From: a virus
Reading direction: 5' to 3' (one strand)
Virus genome (UHGV): UHGV-0071970
DNA: 40,192 nt
The notes beneath the pieces were generated by a model. It saw nothing but the letters and a program-made list of their open reading frames with translations, was not told the DNA's origin and did not search any database. Both the position numbers and the translations under genes were made by a program. Shown here one piece after another: positions 1,112 to 11,702 of this stretch. Within the stretch, counting starts at the first letter, position 1. Each line of letters opens with the position of its first letter.

Positions 1112-1453
1112 TTAGCCAGCATTGCGACGAGATCGGGGTGATTTTTGGGTAATGCCGATTGAAACCTGATCGCCCTCCGACTGAATGGAGCCATCAAGAG
1201 AGAGAGCCGGGGCTATCTGACCGGCAGCAGGCATTGTCTTATCTTTTATTAGCCACATCATGTATTTTTCAAACCGATCAACTTGGAGAACCATCTCAAC
1301 AATTTTGGCTCTGGCGCTTTTTTGCCCTGATTCATAGTTCCTTATGGCAGCTAAAGACAACCCCGTAATATCCGCAAATTCCTTTTGCGTTAGCCCTTCA
1401 GCCTTGCGTATTTGACGTAGCTTTTTTGCATAGTCTATTGACAAGATAACCAT
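1112..1453 (-). CDS. Immunity repressor, P2 C-like helix-turn-helix protein
   Basis: Translation ...LTQKEFADITGLSLAAIRNYESGQ...GQIAPAL resembles P2 repressor C (HTH followed by a GQIAPAL motif). Divergent from the early operon and adjacent to int. Confidence 0.75.
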   Translation of the reverse strand: MVILSIDYAKKLRQIRKAEGLTQKEFADITGLSLAAIRNYESGQKSARAKIVEMVLQVDRFEKYMMWLIKDKTMPAAGQIAPALSLDGSIQSEGDQVSIGITQKSPRSRRNAG

Positions 1454-5027: not shown

Positions 5028-5816
5028 ATGAGCAAAGAACTGTTATCCGGCACGCCGCTTAAATGGGTGGGCGGAAAAAGTCGCATCATGAACACACTGA
5101 AGGCGCATCTGCCAGAAGCAGACTGCCTGGTTGAGCCGTTTGTGGGTGGCGCATCGGTATTCATGAACACCAGTTACAAGCGTTACATCCTGGGTGATTC
5201 CAATGGTGCGCTGATTAATTTCTACCGGCAAGCCAGGGACAACACCGACAGCCTGATCGACGAGGCGAAAACCCTGTTCCTGAACCACAACAACAGGGGT
5301 GACTATCTCATCATTCGCGAAACCTTTAACGCAGAGAATCATGCCTTCCTGAACAGTAGAACGGGAATAAGCGACCGCCGTGAACTGCGACTGGCCGCCA
5401 TGTTTTTGTACCTGAACCGACACAGCTTTAACGGTTTGTTCCGCGTGAACGGAAAAGGCGATTTTAACGTGCCTTTCGGCTGCTACCGCAAGCCCTACTT
5501 CCCTGAGCGGGAAATCCGCGCATTTGCAGACAAGGCAAACAGCACCCGAACGCTGCTTATCCACGCAGATTTTAAGGATACGCTGAACTCTGCCAGTCAC
5601 CTGTTCGGCATGGGCAACACGCTTTGCGTGTACTGCGATCCCCCTTACCTGCGATTCAGTGGCCGGGACAATTTCACCGCCTACGGAAAACCATTCGATG
5701 AAGACGAGCACGTTCGTCTGAGGGCAGCGCTTGACCGCCTTTCACAGGAAACGGGCGGCATGACCAGCATCACCATCTCCAATTCCGACACACCGGAAAC
5801 CAGACGCATTTATTAG
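5028..5816 (+). CDS. dam: DNA N6-adenine methyltransferase (Dam family)
   Basis: KWVGGK, FVGGAS (AdoMet motif I) and catalytic DPPY motif in the translation. Confidence 0.85.
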   Translation: MSKELLSGTPLKWVGGKSRIMNTLKAHLPEADCLVEPFVGGASVFMNTSYKRYILGDSNGALINFYRQARDNTDSLIDEAKTLFLNHNNRGDYLIIRETFNAENHAFLNSRTGISDRRELRLAAMFLYLNRHSFNGLFRVNGKGDFNVPFGCYRKPYFPEREIRAFADKANSTRTLLIHADFKDTLNSASHLFGMGNTLCVYCDPPYLRFSGRDNFTAYGKPFDEDEHVRLRAALDRLSQETGGMTSITISNSDTPETRRIY

Positions 5817-6494: not shown

Positions 6495-6835
6495 TTTATA
6501 TCGCCGGTCCCATGACCGGATGCAAAGACCACAACAGGACGGCATTTTGCGTGGAGGACCTGAAACTTCGGTGCGCCGGAAACATCGTTCTTAATCCTGC
6601 CGTACTGCCTGACGGATTAAGCCAGCAGCAGTACATGAGTATTTGTATTCCGATGCTCATGTGTGCCGATGCCATTTACTTACTGGATGGATGGGAAGAG
6701 TCCGCTGGCGCACGGGCTGAGTACGCAATGGCGCTCAAACTGAACATGCCAGTGTCATTCCCGGAAAACCGGGCAGCCGGCGAAACCGTCGCGCAGCTGC
6801 TTCACAAATCAAAAGCCGCACAGGCGACTGAGTAA
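6485..6835 (+). CDS. DUF4406-like protein (nucleoside 2-deoxyribosyltransferase-like fold)
   Basis: N-terminus MAVIYIAGPMTG is the characteristic start of this family. Confidence 0.55.
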   Translation: MAVIYIAGPMTGCKDHNRTAFCVEDLKLRCAGNIVLNPAVLPDGLSQQQYMSICIPMLMCADAIYLLDGWEESAGARAEYAMALKLNMPVSFPENRAAGETVAQLLHKSKAAQATE

Positions 6836-7273
6836 CCGACCGGAGATCGAAACATGATTGCGCGCAGAGCTACCAACCGTCTCACAGGCTTTATTCCAGG
6901 CAAGGTTGATCATGCACTCCATCACGGGGCTGTCACTTTCCTCAACAAAGGAGAGGCGCGCAATCATGCATTCCGGGGTGAGCACGTGGCGCTGGCTAAT
7001 CAGTCTTTGATAGCTAAGCGCCTGCCATTCAGCCTTTTCAGCTCTGATAGAAAGAGAGGCAGCCATGACCTGCCACACCAGAAAGAGCACCACACTGGCG
7101 AAAACAAACGTTGCGCTGTCGCAAAAAATGAATGCGGCAACAATCGCAAGGAAAGCGCTAATCCTCAGAACCAAGGAAGCGCGACGGTGGAGAAGGCTTG
7201 TCATGTGTTCAAGCCAGTAGCTGTACCACAGGTCAAAAAGAATTTCGTAATCAGAAGGGAGCTTATCACTCAT
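6809..7273 (-). CDS. Predicted membrane protein (154 aa)
   Basis: ATG at 7273 with SD GGGGTG; two long hydrophobic segments (LRISAFLAIVAAFIF, FASVVLFLVWQVMAASL). Its 3' end overlaps the DUF4406 gene by 27 bp, convergently. Confidence 0.45.
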   Translation of the reverse strand: MSDKLPSDYEILFDLWYSYWLEHMTSLLHRRASLVLRISAFLAIVAAFIFCDSATFVFASVVLFLVWQVMAASLSIRAEKAEWQALSYQRLISQRHVLTPECMIARLSFVEESDSPVMECMINLAWNKACETVGSSARNHVSISGRLLSRLCGF

Positions 7274-7450
7274 CAGAAACACCCCGCGTATGCAGACAAT
7301 CACCAGTTGCCAGGTGATATTAATTCGCAACATTCTAACCACATCAGCACGCAACACAAAAACCGCTTGCCAGCGCTCGTCGTGTCGGGTTACATTTCCG
7401 CTGCACCTCATAAAACGGGTGCCGGGATTTCCACCCCGCTGACAAACGAA

Positions 7451-7477
7451 GCGCACAGCCGCGCCAGCGGTTTTTTT
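7451..7477 (+). terminator. Terminator-like hairpin followed by T7 (copy 1 of 2; second copy at 8280-8306)
   Basis: GCGCACAGCCGCGCCAGCGG followed by TTTTTTT; short GC stem, so weak. Confidence 0.35.
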
Positions 7478-7517
7478 GTGCGTACTGTATCGCCACGTCT
7501 TTTTCGCGTCAGAATTA

Positions 7518-7595
7518 TGGCGGGGCGTACAGGGCCGACTTCGGTCGGGCCGGTTTCTTCGTTTGCCGGTTGTGGAAACCCTGTACGTCTCGCCA
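7518..7595 (+). other. Long imperfect hairpin with internal UUCG-capped stem-loop, RNA-like (copy 1)
   Basis: TGGCGGGGCGTACAGGG pairs with CCCTGTACGTCTCGCCA (17 bp, including two G-T pairs that would only pair as G-U in plus-strand RNA); inner GGCCGAC-TTCG-GTCGGGCC stem-loop. Confidence 0.4.
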
Positions 7596-7656
7596 CCCTG
7601 AGTTTTCCACCTCTGGTTGGTGAGTTTTCAAAATTCACAAACGAAGAGGCCACACC

Positions 7657-7878
7657 ATGGCAAACCGCAAGCAACAGCGCGCCCGCGCTGAGCGTCTTCA
7701 CATCCGCAGCGAAATCAACCGCAGACTTTTCCGCGCAACACGCGTCGCACAAATCATGCATATCAACATGCTGCATGAGCGCACGCACGCGCTGTCAAAC
7801 CGTTACTGCGCTGCTGTCTTCAGCTATCTCGCCGAAGATCTGGCAGAACTGCAAAGCCTCATCAACCAGCACCGATAA
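7657..7878 (+). CDS. Small basic protein (73 aa), copy 1
   Basis: MANRKQQRARAERLHIRSEINRRLF...; SD AAGAGG 7 nt upstream. A longer antisense ORF (7408..7788) also exists, so coding strand is not certain. Confidence 0.45.
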   Translation: MANRKQQRARAERLHIRSEINRRLFRATRVAQIMHINMLHERTHALSNRYCAAVFSYLAEDLAELQSLINQHR

Positions 7879-7946
7879 ACCACATCCGGAAGCTATCCCA
7901 CACCTGCACGCGGGAGGCTTCCGCACGTCTGTTACCGGAGGTTCTC

Positions 7947-8117
7947 ATGAAGAGCGTTAAGGGACTTTCAGATATTCAGGACTTCTTTAACTGGATGTGG
8001 GCGGTGGATCCCCTGCTGGCTTCCCGCCTGAACAACTGGCACGACTATTACCGCCGCGCCTGTAAACAGGCTGCCCGCAGCGTCACCACATACGGGGCTT
8101 TCTCCTTCACCGTTGAC
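7947..8117 (+). pseudogene. Duplicated 5' fragment (about 57 codons) of the 138-aa gene at 8776..9192
   Basis: Same N-terminus MKSVKGLSDIQDFFNWMW...; the frame then runs out of the unit into repeat copy 2, giving the artefactual 280-aa track ORF 7947..8789. Confidence 0.5.
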
Positions 8118-8346
8118 TATGCAGACAATCACCAGTTGCCAGGTGATATTAATTCGCAACATTCTAACCACATCAGCACGCAACACAAAAACCGCTTGCC
8201 AGCGCTCGTCGTGTCGGGTTACATTTCCGCTGCACCTCATAAAACGGGTGCCGGGATTTCCACCCCGCTGACAAACGAAGCGCACAGCCGCGCCAGCGGT
8301 TTTTTTGTGCGTACTGTATCGCCACGTCTTTTTCGCGTCAGAATTA

Positions 8347-8424
8347 TGGCGGGGCGTACAGGGCCGACTTCGGTCGGGCCGGTTTCTTCGTTTGCCGGTT
8401 GTGGAAACCCTGTACGTCTCGCCA
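8347..8424 (+). other. Second copy of the RNA-like hairpin element
   Basis: Identical sequence at +829 bp. Confidence 0.4.
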
Positions 8425-8485
8425 CCCTGAGTTTTCCACCTCTGGTTGGTGAGTTTTCAAAATTCACAAACGAAGAGGCCACACC

Positions 8486-8707
8486 ATGGCAAACCGCAAG
8501 CAACAGCGCGCCCGCGCTGAGCGTCTTCACATCCGCAGCGAAATCAACCGCAGACTTTTCCGCGCAACACGCGTCGCACAAATCATGCATATCAACATGC
8601 TGCATGAGCGCACGCACGCGCTGTCAAACCGTTACTGCGCTGCTGTCTTCAGCTATCTCGCCGAAGATCTGGCAGAACTGCAAAGCCTCATCAACCAGCA
8701 CCGATAA
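8486..8707 (+). CDS. Small basic protein (73 aa), copy 2, identical
   Basis: Identical duplicate inside repeat copy 2. Confidence 0.45.
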   Translation: MANRKQQRARAERLHIRSEINRRLFRATRVAQIMHINMLHERTHALSNRYCAAVFSYLAEDLAELQSLINQHR

Positions 8708-8775
8708 ACCACATCCGGAAGCTATCCCACACCTGCACGCGGGAGGCTTCCGCACGTCTGTTACCGGAGGTTCTC

Positions 8776-9192
8776 ATGAAGAGCGTTAAGGGACTTTCAG
8801 ATATTCAGGACTTCTTTAACTGGATGTGGGCGGTGGATCCCCTGCTGGCTTCCCGCCTGAACAACTGGCACGACTATTACCGCCGCGCCTGTAAACAGGC
8901 TGCCCGCAGCGTCACCACATACGGGGATTTCTCCTTCACCGTGGACGGTCGTTACCGCGTGGACGTGAAAGGTGATGGTGATGGACTGGGTTTATTTCAC
9001 ATCAACGGCACCGACAGTACCGCCATCAGCTGGTCGTCATCAGAGATGGCGCTGATTCTGGAAATGACAACCCACAGCGTGGCCGTGAAAGGTATATACA
9101 CCGCAGAAGGTTTTATCGGCGAATACCAGCGCCTTCTCGTGCTGTACCGCGCGGCGTTTCAGGTGGCAACTGCCGGGGAGTGCGACGCATGA
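8776..9192 (+). CDS. Hypothetical protein (138 aa) immediately upstream of gpA
   Basis: Its stop overlaps the gpA ATG (ATGA at 9189-9192). Confidence 0.5.
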   Translation: MKSVKGLSDIQDFFNWMWAVDPLLASRLNNWHDYYRRACKQAARSVTTYGDFSFTVDGRYRVDVKGDGDGLGLFHINGTDSTAISWSSSEMALILEMTTHSVAVKGIYTAEGFIGEYQRLLVLYRAAFQVATAGECDA

Positions 9193-11702
9193 GCGACCAT
9201 AACGCACAACTGGCGTACCCGTGGAACGCCCCGCTACCGGTTATCGATCCTGAAACGTTCGGCAGAGCACAGCCAACCGCATTACGCCAGGCCATTCAGA
9301 GCTACATCAACGAGGACATTCGCATTGATGCCAGACTGGATGAAGAAACCGTCGCCTTTCTGACAACCACAGACGAAGGGAAGCGAATTAATTCGCACCT
9401 TCACCACAACGAAGAGCGTCGGATCAGACTGGAAAAACTGGCGAAGCACAAACGCGAGAATCCGCCCACGGTGGTATCGGAAGCCATGGCAGAACTTCGC
9501 GCCCTGCCCTCGTTTCTTGGCAACGTGCTCATTCGTGATCTGGCGCGTTTAAACCGCAAACAACAAAGCGCCCGCAATGAAGGCGTGAAAAACAACAACA
9601 CTCACGTGGCCGATAACTTCGTTCGCCGTGGACTGCGCACACGCCTGAAACGCATCGAACAGGTGAATGAATGCTTCGCCACGACGGCATTCAAAGCCAC
9701 CGCAGCGCGTCATCGCCTTGATGAATTACTCATGCTGCCACAACTCAACCGTGATCAAATTCAGCGCCTTGCCACACTAACGGCGGCGGCATTTTCCACC
9801 GAACTGGAACGCATATGTGATGAAGTTACTGAGCGGACAGGAAAAGGTGACGATAACCTGTTCACCTGGTTGCTGACTTACCAGCAGCTGGCGCGCATGG
9901 CGTTAAAACTGGGCGTGACCCCACCATACTGGCCGTCACTCGAGATCAGACGTGACCGCCGCACGGCACCAGACCCTGAACTGGTACCGGGTGCGGTAAT
10001 GCGTATCACCTGCGCCACCTGGTGGAACAACCAGCTGCGCCACCTCGCTGATCTCTGGCGGGAGGAATTACTGCGTGCCGCCGGAAGAGTATCGCGCAAG
10101 GCATCCCCCTACATCAGCCATGAGTCACTCCAGGAATTCCGGGAGAAACGCCAGCGCACCCGTGATTTTCTCAAAAGCTGGGACATTGAAAACGAAGACG
10201 GTGAACGCCTGAGTCTGGAGGACGTGTACTGGTCAGGGCTGGGGAATCCGCGCAACCGCCGCAACGAGATGATGGCCTGCGTCAGAGGGATGGAACAGGT
10301 CGCCGAATCGCGTGGTGACTCCGCGTTCTTCGTGACAGTGACCTGCCCTTCCCGCTTTCACAGCGTAAACGAGGACGGCAGCCTGAACCCGAAATACAAC
10401 GGTGCCACCGTGCGCGATGCCAGTGATTATCTGGTTTACGACGTCTTTGCAGCTGCAAGAAAAAAACTCAACAAAGAAGGCCTGAGCTGGTACGGGGTGC
10501 GCACCGTTGAGCCACACCATGACGGCACACCGCACTGGCACATGCTGGTATTCACCGCCCCGGACAATGAAGAACGCATCATTGAAATCATGCGTGACGC
10601 AGCAATCAAATCAGATCGCGCAGAACTGGGGAATGATATTTCTCCGCGCTTCAAGTGCGAAAAAATCGACCCGGCAAAAGGCACACCGGCAAGCTACATC
10701 GCAACCTATATTGGCAAGAACCTGGACGCCAGCACCTTTCACGACAATGACCCGAAAACCGGCAAACCTTACGCCGATAAAGAATCGGGAAAAACCATGG
10801 CGGAAACCGTGGAAAACGCCATTGCCTGGGCGAGTCTCCACCGCATCCGGCAGTTCCAGTTCTTCGGTATCCCGCCCCGCCAGGTATGGCGTGAACTCCG
10901 CCGCCTTGCCGGACAAATGGAGCGTAACCCCGCATCACCGAAGCGCCTGGACCATGACGACATTGACGCCATTCTGGCCGCCGCTGACGTGGGGTGTTTT
11001 GCCACCTACATCAACCGTCAGGGCGGCGTGCTCATTCCACGCAACCTGTACCTGATCCGCACCGCATACGAAACCGCAGATGAGGCCAACGACTACGGCG
11101 AATTCCCGCAGCGCATCTACGGAATTTGTGCCCCGTCGCTCGGCGAGCGCTACACCATCTGCACCCATCCGGACGAGTGGAAACTGGTCAGAAAAGAAGC
11201 GAAAGCCGACAACAGCACGGACGAGGATTTTGACGTTGGGGGCGGCTTCGCCGCACCTTGGACTCGTGGCAATAACTGTCCCCATGATGAAAAAACAGAC
11301 ACCGGAGAGGGTAAAACCCCACCACCGGAAACCAGGAAAGAACAAAAACTGGTCGTCCCGGGAGGTGATTTGGGTGAGTGGTTAAGGTCACTGACCCCCA
11401 CAGAGCGAAAACAACTCACCAGGCAGCTGAAAGATGCGCCATCTGACACAAAAACCGTGAAAACCGGCGGCCCCACCACGCCCGATGACGTCATACATGT
11501 GCGTACAGCATTGCCGCTGACTGACGTCACCACCACCGTAATCAAGTCGGCACTGAGCGCGACGGGCGAGGAGCTACACAGTGGCGCAGCACTTTCCGTA
11601 CACAGAGGTGCACGCGTTCGCCTGCCTGACGGGCGGATTGTGCACTGGGATGAGAAATCACGAAGCCTGGTGGCAGCAGATCAACCGGAGGTGAACCCAT
11701 GA
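9189..11702 (+). CDS. A: Replication initiation protein gpA (rolling-circle endonuclease)
   Basis: About 838 aa; tyrosine motif SYIATYIGKNLD typical of rolling-circle initiators; position and size match P2 gene A. ATG at 9189; the track start at 9180 is a GTG. Confidence 0.8.
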   Translation: MSDHNAQLAYPWNAPLPVIDPETFGRAQPTALRQAIQSYINEDIRIDARLDEETVAFLTTTDEGKRINSHLHHNEERRIRLEKLAKHKRENPPTVVSEAMAELRALPSFLGNVLIRDLARLNRKQQSARNEGVKNNNTHVADNFVRRGLRTRLKRIEQVNECFATTAFKATAARHRLDELLMLPQLNRDQIQRLATLTAAAFSTELERICDEVTERTGKGDDNLFTWLLTYQQLARMALKLGVTPPYWPSLEIRRDRRTAPDPELVPGAVMRITCATWWNNQLRHLADLWREELLRAAGRVSRKASPYISHESLQEFREKRQRTRDFLKSWDIENEDGERLSLEDVYWSGLGNPRNRRNEMMACVRGMEQVAESRGDSAFFVTVTCPSRFHSVNEDGSLNPKYNGATVRDASDYLVYDVFAAARKKLNKEGLSWYGVRTVEPHHDGTPHWHMLVFTAPDNEERIIEIMRDAAIKSDRAELGNDISPRFKCEKIDPAKGTPASYIATYIGKNLDASTFHDNDPKTGKPYADKESGKTMAETVENAIAWASLHRIRQFQFFGIPPRQVWRELRRLAGQMERNPASPKRLDHDDIDAILAAADVGCFATYINRQGGVLIPRNLYLIRTAYETADEANDYGEFPQRIYGICAPSLGERYTICTHPDEWKLVRKEAKADNSTDEDFDVGGGFAAPWTRGNNCPHDEKTDTGEGKTPPPETRKEQKLVVPGGDLGEWLRSLTPTERKQLTRQLKDAPSDTKTVKTGGPTTPDDVIHVRTALPLTDVTTTVIKSALSATGEELHSGAALSVHRGARVRLPDGRIVHWDEKSRSLVAADQPEVNP

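Follow-up and report, generated by a model that had tools for sequence, protein, structure and literature searches.

The segment between positions 7451 and 7595 of UHGV-0071970, a viral genome stretch of 40,192 nucleotides (hereafter the window), very probably belongs to an RNA immunity module of the P4/P1 type which resides in a P88-like prophage and holds an epsilon-like anti-repressor gene untranslated. The module encodes two RNAs, an IsrK-type small RNA and a C4/CI-type antisense RNA, upstream of an open reading frame (ORF) of 73 codons, the 73-aa ORF, whose product is homologous to the epsilon derepression protein of phage P4. Both RNAs match curated families over their full length, and the structures, a putative promoter and a putative terminator are conserved in related loci. 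Short patches in the two RNAs and in the leader of the 73-aa ORF are complementary at three places and covary, and one of the target patches overlaps the Shine-Dalgarno box of that ORF. The window also encodes a homologue of the P2 C repressor.

Family identity and structure of the two RNAs

The Rfam scan of the whole window yields four matches over the curated thresholds, an IsrK and a C4 match in each of two tandem copies, all full-model and all on the plus strand (Table 1). Weak matches to Chloroflexi-1 and anti-hemB are far under the thresholds and were taken as chance. In P4, the same scan finds isrK at 8615-8692 (60.8 bits) and C4 at 8420-8507 (74.9 bits), both on the minus strand and in the same order, upstream of epsilon. 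On the strength of this agreement, the element is assigned to the RNA immunity modules of the P4/P1 type. The seqA leader and the CI RNA of P4 are the structural homologues of IsrK and C4, respectively (PMC3632133; PMC4825925).

An earlier interpretation made from the sequence alone (the sequence-only reading) described one structured, functional RNA in this segment, and all the features it listed are present where it placed them. A terminator scan finds the hairpin preceding seven T residues, with the stem AGCCGC/GCGGTT at 7457-7472 and the T-run at 7471-7477. The long stem is formed by TGGCGGGGCGTACAGGG (7518-7534) and CCCTGTACGTCTCGCCA (7579-7595), which pair over 17 bp, 15 of them Watson-Crick and two G-U (inverted repeat I10). 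The UUCG stem-loop exists as CCGAC-UUCG-GUCGG at 7535-7548; its loop, however, varies in the family, relatives having AUCA, ACAA or UCCG. The element is repeated exactly 829 nt downstream, as had been seen. Its unity has to be given up: there are two RNAs and a target common to them, at the ribosome-binding site of the 73-aa ORF, and their families had not been recognised. As the IsrK match covers 7403-7477, the terminator-like hairpin closes the 3' end of an IsrK-type small RNA of 75 nt, which begins near 7403 and forms two further hairpins. These had been missed, as had the second inner hairpin of C4 (GCCGG, a 12-nt loop and CCGGU at 7549-7570) and the downstream target sites complementary to C4 (7604-7610 and 7638-7649).

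The minimum-energy fold of the C4 segment is the consensus structure of the family, a long outer stem enclosing two hairpins and a single-stranded junction. On the plus strand, 7513-7600 folds with -48.9 kcal/mol (z = -6.07, 0 of 200 shuffles as good), and on the minus strand with -36.7 kcal/mol. The weaker fold of the minus strand fits the argument, made in the sequence-only reading, that the G-U pairs indicate an RNA transcribed from the plus strand.

The candidate promoter and terminator of the IsrK-type RNA are both present and both conserved at the sequence level. In 57 homologous upstream sequences (see below) the -35 hexamer is invariant and the -10 hexamer is conserved in 55-57 of 57, whereas 10 spacer positions vary. 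Stems, terminator and promoter hexamers are nearly invariant across the related loci, and 7367-7396 is the putative promoter of the module. The only feature related to Hfq binding visible in the sequence of the IsrK-type RNA is the 3' U-run after the terminator.

By analogy with its relatives, C4 is probably released from a longer precursor as a processed RNA; RNase P reportedly processes c4 in P1, and also P4 CI. The heptamer GCCACCC directly after the C4 stem is invariant in the homologue alignment and is compatible with a tRNA-like 3' end of C4. The sequence-only reading had offered a small RNA, a 5' leader or a processing site. Judged from the precedents in P1, P4 and Gifsy-1, each of the three partly applies, the processed RNA being only probable.

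Table 1. Features of the immunity module and of the genes connected with it in the window
Feature	Position	Strand	Description
Putative sigma-70-like promoter of the module	7367-7396	+	TTGCCA, 18-nt spacer, TACATT; predicted transcription start about 7403
IsrK-type small RNA (P4 seqA-leader equivalent)	7403-7477	+	Rfam RF01394, 64.1 bits (gathering 50), E 1.4e-11, model positions 1-77 of 77
Parts of the IsrK-type RNA	7403-7477	+	two 5' hairpins, single-stranded linker, intrinsic terminator (stem 7457-7472, T-run 7471-7477)
Patch a1, UUUCCAC	7428-7434	+	loop of IsrK hairpin 2; complementary to a' and covaries with it
Patch b1, CAAACGAAG	7443-7451	+	IsrK linker before the terminator; complementary to b'
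C4/CI-type antisense RNA	7513-7600	+	Rfam RF01695, 82.1 bits (gathering 45), E 8.5e-15, model positions 1-87 of 87
Parts of C4	7518-7534 with 7579-7595; 7535-7548; 7549-7570	+	outer 17-bp stem; hairpin 1 (UUCG loop); hairpin 2 (12-nt loop)
Recognition loop b', UUUCUUCGUUUG	7554-7565	+	loop of C4 hairpin 2; pairs with b2, 3-5 pair types per position
Recognition patch a', GUGGAAA	7572-7578	+	single-stranded C4 junction
Target site a2, UUUCCAC	7604-7610	+	leader of the 73-aa ORF; 7 bp with a'
Target site b2, CAAACGAAGAGG	7638-7649	+	10 Watson-Crick and 2 G-U pairs with b' (repeat I3)
73-aa ORF, P4 epsilon derepression protein homologue, presumed cargo	7657-7878	+	Pfam PF25738, BLASTP, hhalign
IsrK-type RNA, copy 2	8232-8306	+	Rfam; a1 8257-8263, b1 8272-8280
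C4/CI-type RNA, copy 2	8342-8429	+	Rfam; b' 8383-8394, a' 8401-8407; targets a2 8433-8439, b2 8467-8478
Epsilon-like ORF, copy 2	8486-8707	+	
829-bp repeat unit, copy 1	7289-8117		promoter, IsrK, C4, target sites, epsilon-like ORF, first 57 codons of the 138-aa ORF
829-bp repeat unit, copy 2	8118-8946		identical to copy 1 except at the counterparts of 8098 (C/A) and 8114 (T/G), next to the junction
138-aa ORF (phrog_3237)	8776-9192	+	own GGAGG ribosome-binding site; overlaps the start of the gpA-type gene
gpA-type replication gene	9180-11702		
P2 C-type immunity repressor, presumed target of the epsilon-like protein	1112-1453	-	35% identity to P2 C over 80 aa, E 2e-21; HTH_3 domain

Recognition patches and their covariation

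The two C4 patches, b' and a', are each complementary to one site in the IsrK-type RNA (b1 and a1) and to one site in the leader of the 73-aa ORF (b2 and a2). The Shine-Dalgarno box, AAGAGG, lies inside b2 and ends 7 nt ahead of the ATG at 7657. The 9-mer CAAACGAAG of b1 is found nowhere else in the 40-kb window.

Homologous loci were taken from 80 viral contigs encoding relatives of the 73-aa ORF (76-100% identical) and from P88. They yield 57 unique upstream sequences, 46 of them distinct over the aligned 271 nt. The variation among the 57 loci is concentrated in exactly the six patches, with complementarity kept. All 27 pairs of the C4 stems are 100% paired in the 46 distinct sequences, and four of these pairs have changed on both sides. 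The b'-b2 and a'-a2 pairings contain up to five pair types per position. With all internal stems of IsrK and C4 counted along with b'-b2 and a'-a2, the number of cells changed on both sides is 223; shuffled alignments give 62.7 (0/500), and sliding the partners by 1-3 columns gives 15-64. The covariation score of b1-b' and a1-a' is 0.524, against 0.097 in shuffles (0/500). The checks proposed by the sequence-only reading, covariation in homologues and an Rfam scan, thus come out in favour of the functional RNA it had preferred to a DNA signal: both parts score above the gathering thresholds, and the stems in homologues keep their pairing through compensatory and G-U changes.

The six patches occur in 27 combinations, drawn from six a-types and 12 b-types, the two kinds reassorting. 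The duplexes formed within one combination are stronger than those with foreign partners: -12.9 vs -5.8 kcal/mol for b'-b2 (own partner best in 26 of 27), -9.9 vs -2.7 for a'-a2 (27 of 27), -11.1 vs -4.6 for b'-b1 (23 of 27), and -9.3 vs -2.3 for a'-a1 (25 of 27). Since the patches are physically linked, their co-inheritance alone is no evidence; the evidence lies in the many distinct types, each of which has its complementarity preserved in all three positions. Matched triplets are kept although a change of patch type requires coordinated exchanges in IsrK, in C4 and in the target.

A second sample of at least 120 loci counts as independent, as the search pattern used for it defined the backbone only and put no constraint on the patches. 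It contains at least 11 a' and at least 24 b' variants. Among the loci listed, the first downstream ORF is epsilon-like in 84 and of the Rha family in 34, and is absent in two. The patch sequences may serve as an address that sets cross-reaction between modules, that is, the specificity of immunity.

Two loci depart from the common pattern. One is a recombinant (IMG/VR UViG_3300029738_000139, locus L006, positions 219-489), in which the IsrK part carries the window's address and the C4 and target parts carry another. In the second (IMG/VR UViG_2582580934_000004, locus L078, positions 138-408), hairpin 2 of C4 is duplicated and has two different b' loops, UUCUUUGCUCU and UUCUUGUGUAG, of which only the second matches b1 and b2 of the same locus. 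The latter may be a dual-address intermediate.

The downstream gene and the prophage

The window is a P88-like prophage (Xuanwuvirus, Peduoviridae) of E. coli and contains an integrase. A Cox-like protein is also encoded, with a Pfam Phage_Cox score of 25.3 bits, slightly under the 27.5-bit threshold. The 2.6-kb region around the module (6800-9400) is matched in 1220 of 5426 complete E. coli genomes. The module is present in P88; the early region of P2 has no isrK or C4 match, so it is not a general P2 feature.

The 73-aa ORF starts 57 nt after the C4 match. All 40 distinct relatives match the Pfam derepression protein family PF25738 (best E 5.6e-8), in which P4 epsilon scores 170 bits. The direct comparison with P4 epsilon gives 32% identity over 50 aa by BLASTP (E 8e-8) and a probability of 90.7% by hhalign. 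The P4 record annotates epsilon as "helper derepression protein", and P4 epsilon is said to be an anti-repressor that binds P2 C. By this precedent, the epsilon-like protein may bind and inactivate the P2 C-type repressor of the prophage. The 138-aa ORF behind it is probably co-transcribed with the gpA-type gene. A search of NCBIfam with the 73-aa, 138-aa and membrane ORFs gave no hits.

Just upstream of the module, the rightward early operon is interrupted by a 155-aa ORF on the minus strand (6809-7276, phrog_6315), in which two hydrophobic segments can be seen by eye. In P88 this position is taken by a plus-strand gene with an SPFH domain, and the homology between relatives breaks upstream of about 7350.

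No public record examined annotates either of the two RNA genes. Public annotations place minus-strand "hypothetical proteins" over IsrK and C4 (7408-7788 in the window, 909-1277 in loci L084 and L086, 4055-4243 in L001), and these sometimes shorten the derepression-protein gene.

Proposed mode of regulation

Transcripts would be initiated at about 7403 from the conserved promoter, and most of them would be halted at the T7 terminator, giving the 75-nt IsrK-type RNA. Those that read through would hold the C4/CI-type RNA together with the mRNA of the epsilon-like anti-repressor. The steps from here on are modelled on the precedents of the family. The b' loop and the a' junction of C4 would pair with b2 and a2 of the leader, either in cis or, after processing, in trans. 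As b2 contains the Shine-Dalgarno box, this pairing would prevent ribosomes from binding, and the anti-repressor would stay off. Judging from P1 and P4, the genes further downstream would probably be subject to polarity as well. The IsrK-type RNA carries the same two sites, a1 and b1, and hence would either compete for C4, in line with its activating role in Gifsy-1, or be a co-target of C4, as seqA is in P4. Once C4 is outcompeted, the epsilon-like protein would be made, and the P2 C-type repressor would be expected to be inactivated and the prophage derepressed. A precedent for activation exists in Gifsy-1, where the short IsrK, acting in trans, switches translation on (PMC4825925).

Several points weigh against this scheme. 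Everything past the sequence level at this locus is argued by analogy. In P4, CI-dependent termination acts on the seqA region. The precedents for the direction of IsrK action diverge: IsrK is an activator in Gifsy-1 (PMC4825925), yet the seqA region of P4 is needed for establishing lysogeny (PMC3632133). The recombinant locus described above has an IsrK part mismatched to its own C4 (own duplex energies -3.7 and -2.3 kcal/mol), so that matching of IsrK is not absolutely required. The Pfam score of the window's own 73-aa ORF is barely above the threshold (28.2 vs 27 bits). The 221-nt leader folds b' (7552-7565) in cis onto 7638-7651, which includes the Shine-Dalgarno box (-90.9 kcal/mol, z = -4.85); as the leader is able to form this pairing by itself, action in trans is putative. 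Finally, P88 was recovered after mitomycin C treatment, yet the module and the window lack a canonical LexA box.

Direct control of the module by LexA was considered and rejected. The canonical box CTGT-N8-ACAG is absent from the module and from the whole 40-kb window, and TACTGTAT at 7484 is a half-site only.

It is possible, if rather doubtful, that the main output is transcription termination and polarity, as in P4. Binding of C4 at a1/b1 and a2/b2 would then mainly stop entry into the 138-aa ORF and gpA, so that replication would be controlled more than the anti-repressor. The module does lie directly upstream of these two genes, and the P4 module governs replication genes by premature termination (PMC4825925). 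However, b2 is positioned precisely on the Shine-Dalgarno box of the epsilon-like ORF in every type, and in the lambdoid relatives the module precedes regulators of the Rha family, not replication genes. Such an output is compatible with silencing of the anti-repressor and does not exclude it, and polarity on the 138-aa ORF and gpA is plausible.

An improbable alternative is a purely cis-acting 5' leader, in which the C4-shaped structure and the b' loop sequester the Shine-Dalgarno box of the 73-aa ORF, no stable RNA is released to act in trans, and IsrK is an attenuator terminator only. The leader fold given above is exactly of this kind, and covariation is blind to the difference between pairing in cis and in trans. 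On the other hand, the same families yield processed trans-acting RNAs in P1/P7 and P4, and a stable RNA, STnc1160, has been observed downstream of IsrK in Gifsy-1 (PMC4825925). Moreover, cis sequestration alone does not readily account for the separate promoter and terminator unit of IsrK or for the covariation of a1 and b1 with C4.

The scheme of two RNAs and a silenced anti-repressor also has to be set against coding of the segment itself, either in the plus frame from the ATG at 7517 or in a short upstream ORF coupled to the downstream gene in the manner of orf45 in Gifsy-1, which we regard as very unlikely. The frame from this conserved ATG is open for 148 codons, and in most unique homologues for 142-150 codons; mutation of the orf45 start codon lowers activation in Gifsy-1 (PMC4825925). 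However, only 9% of the codon differences in the long frame are synonymous, whereas the epsilon and third frames have 54% and 13%, and the variable sites are distributed as 16/19/45 over codon positions 1/2/3 of the epsilon frame. Six unique homologues have indels or stops that interrupt the long frame, and the conserved AUGG is accounted for by the base of the outer stem, which is formed by UGG/CCA. The open frame was therefore rejected as protein-coding on the codon-position and synonymous-change statistics and on its breaks in homologues. This agrees with the non-protein-like composition remarked on in the sequence-only reading, as the frame has no coding signature in homologues. A short upstream ORF may be occasionally translated, as is reported for orf45 in Gifsy-1. 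A longer plus-strand frame of 368 codons (6854-7960) runs antisense through the membrane gene, then over IsrK and C4, and then out of frame over the epsilon-like ORF; it is open in most relatives and has no coding signature.

A DNA-level signal (an operator, origin or recombination site) could draw on the inverted repeats and on the adjacent junction of the tandem duplication, but can be practically dismissed, since the pairing needs G-U on the plus strand only, as reflected in the folding energies of the two strands, the changes in homologues keep RNA pairs, G-U included, and the covariance-model matches are strand-specific.

Tandem duplication of the module

The repeat unit of 829 bp carries a complete module in each of its two copies (Table 1). 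Among complete E. coli genomes, the duplicated region is found in three, G6/7, G8 and SCU-172; most genomes are single-copy. In the two that were examined, G6/7 (CP060061, locus L084) and SCU-172 (CP054353, locus L085), the junction is that of the window, including both differences, at 8098 and 8114. The G6/7 array is heterotypic: its first copy carries the window's address, whereas in the second all six patches have changed to another (a UUCGCAG, b CUAGCAAAG). SCU-172 has the second a-type in both copies. Since the arrays of G6/7 and SCU-172 carry other address combinations, the window represents the homotypic form of an array in which address cassettes are exchanged between the copies.

Comparison with known systems

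The closest parallel is P4 with its seqA leader, CI RNA and seqC. The two Rfam families, their order and strand are the same, and an epsilon-family gene follows downstream. The layout a1/b1, b'/a', a2/b2 is shared with P4 and with a Stx2a phage, the patch sequences being different, and in P4, as here, b2 lies on the Shine-Dalgarno box before the ATG. The addresses of P4-type elements are reassorted too, with three a' and 25 b' variants in 37 combinations among 120 loci (L208-L327). No exact a' or b' core is common to the P4-type and P88-type samples; one P4-type b', UUUCUUCGUUUA, is a single base from that of the window.

The differences from P4 are also clear. P4 is a satellite, whereas the element considered here belongs to a full P2-like phage of the helper type. 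In P4, epsilon comes about 245 nt after the C4 match and behind another ORF, whereas here the epsilon-like ORF comes first, after 57 nt. P4 epsilon has 95 aa, compared to 73 aa for its homologue, which is 32% identical. Downstream genes encode the alpha primase in P4 and the gpA replication protein here. Extended synteny was rejected, as the 138-aa ORF has no similarity to orf151 or orf106 of P4.

The isrK-orf45-anrP region of Gifsy-1 from Salmonella likewise has an RNA of the IsrK family, which is transcribed from its own promoter and ended by a leaky terminator, a read-through mRNA that is translationally silent until IsrK pairs with the downstream region, and an anti-repressor as cargo (PMC4825925). 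The relative in the Stx2a phage has the same layout as the Gifsy-1 type and is situated upstream of a Rha-family ORF. However, the cargo is AnrP in Gifsy-1, or of the Rha type in relatives, and epsilon-type here; no equivalent of orf45 is supported as a conserved short ORF; the AntQ anti-terminator has no counterpart in the window context; and Gifsy-1 is lambdoid whereas the window is a P2-like phage. The Stx2a phage locus (L083) also contains an ALIL pseudoknot, the frameshift element of the IS3 family, at 5066-5182 on the minus strand (120.9 bits), about 2 kb from IsrK-C4; it appears to be unrelated.

In immI of P1 and P7, c4 is said to lie upstream of the anti-repressor operon, to be co-transcribed with it, and to act through two short patches, one of them over the ribosome-binding site. 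Differences in the patches reportedly make P1 and P7 heteroimmune. The cargo there is icd/ant, in contrast to the epsilon-like gene here, and we know of no separately terminated IsrK-type small RNA in P1. A review table gives c4 as a 77-nt trans regulator of ant.

Implications for P2-like phages and their satellites

The IsrK-C4 system has already been described for P4, P1, P7, N15 and some lambdoid prophages (PMC3632133). In the literature searched, no paper links IsrK or C4 to P2-like phages, and none reports that in such phages the module immediately precedes an epsilon homologue, how broad the reassorted address code is, or that tandem arrays can be heterotypic. Thus the module is a switch of a known kind, made of RNAs of described families, in a setting for which no prior description was found.

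Annotation has left this region blank or filled it with spurious minus-strand ORFs, and in its place there are two RNA genes that probably gate an anti-repressor of the prophage family. The module is a candidate induction route for P88-like phages.

A broader suggestion can be made only tentatively. Helper-type phages of the P2 family may share with P4 satellites a cassette of RNA immunity and epsilon, with a combinatorial address of two patches (at least 11 a' and at least 24 b'), in which matched triplets are kept and whose tandem arrays are able to hold two addresses. A common ancestry appears to link the immunity and epsilon cassette of the satellite P4 to that of its helper's family. For studying the specificity of two-site RNA recognition, the numerous natural sets of matched patches offer a ready series of orthogonal antisense and target pairs. 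If the suggestion is true, the patches would form a lock-and-key network among co-resident prophages, incoming phages and satellites, deciding which of them can silence or induce each other, and this cross-control would be exerted by RNA, not through repressor proteins alone.

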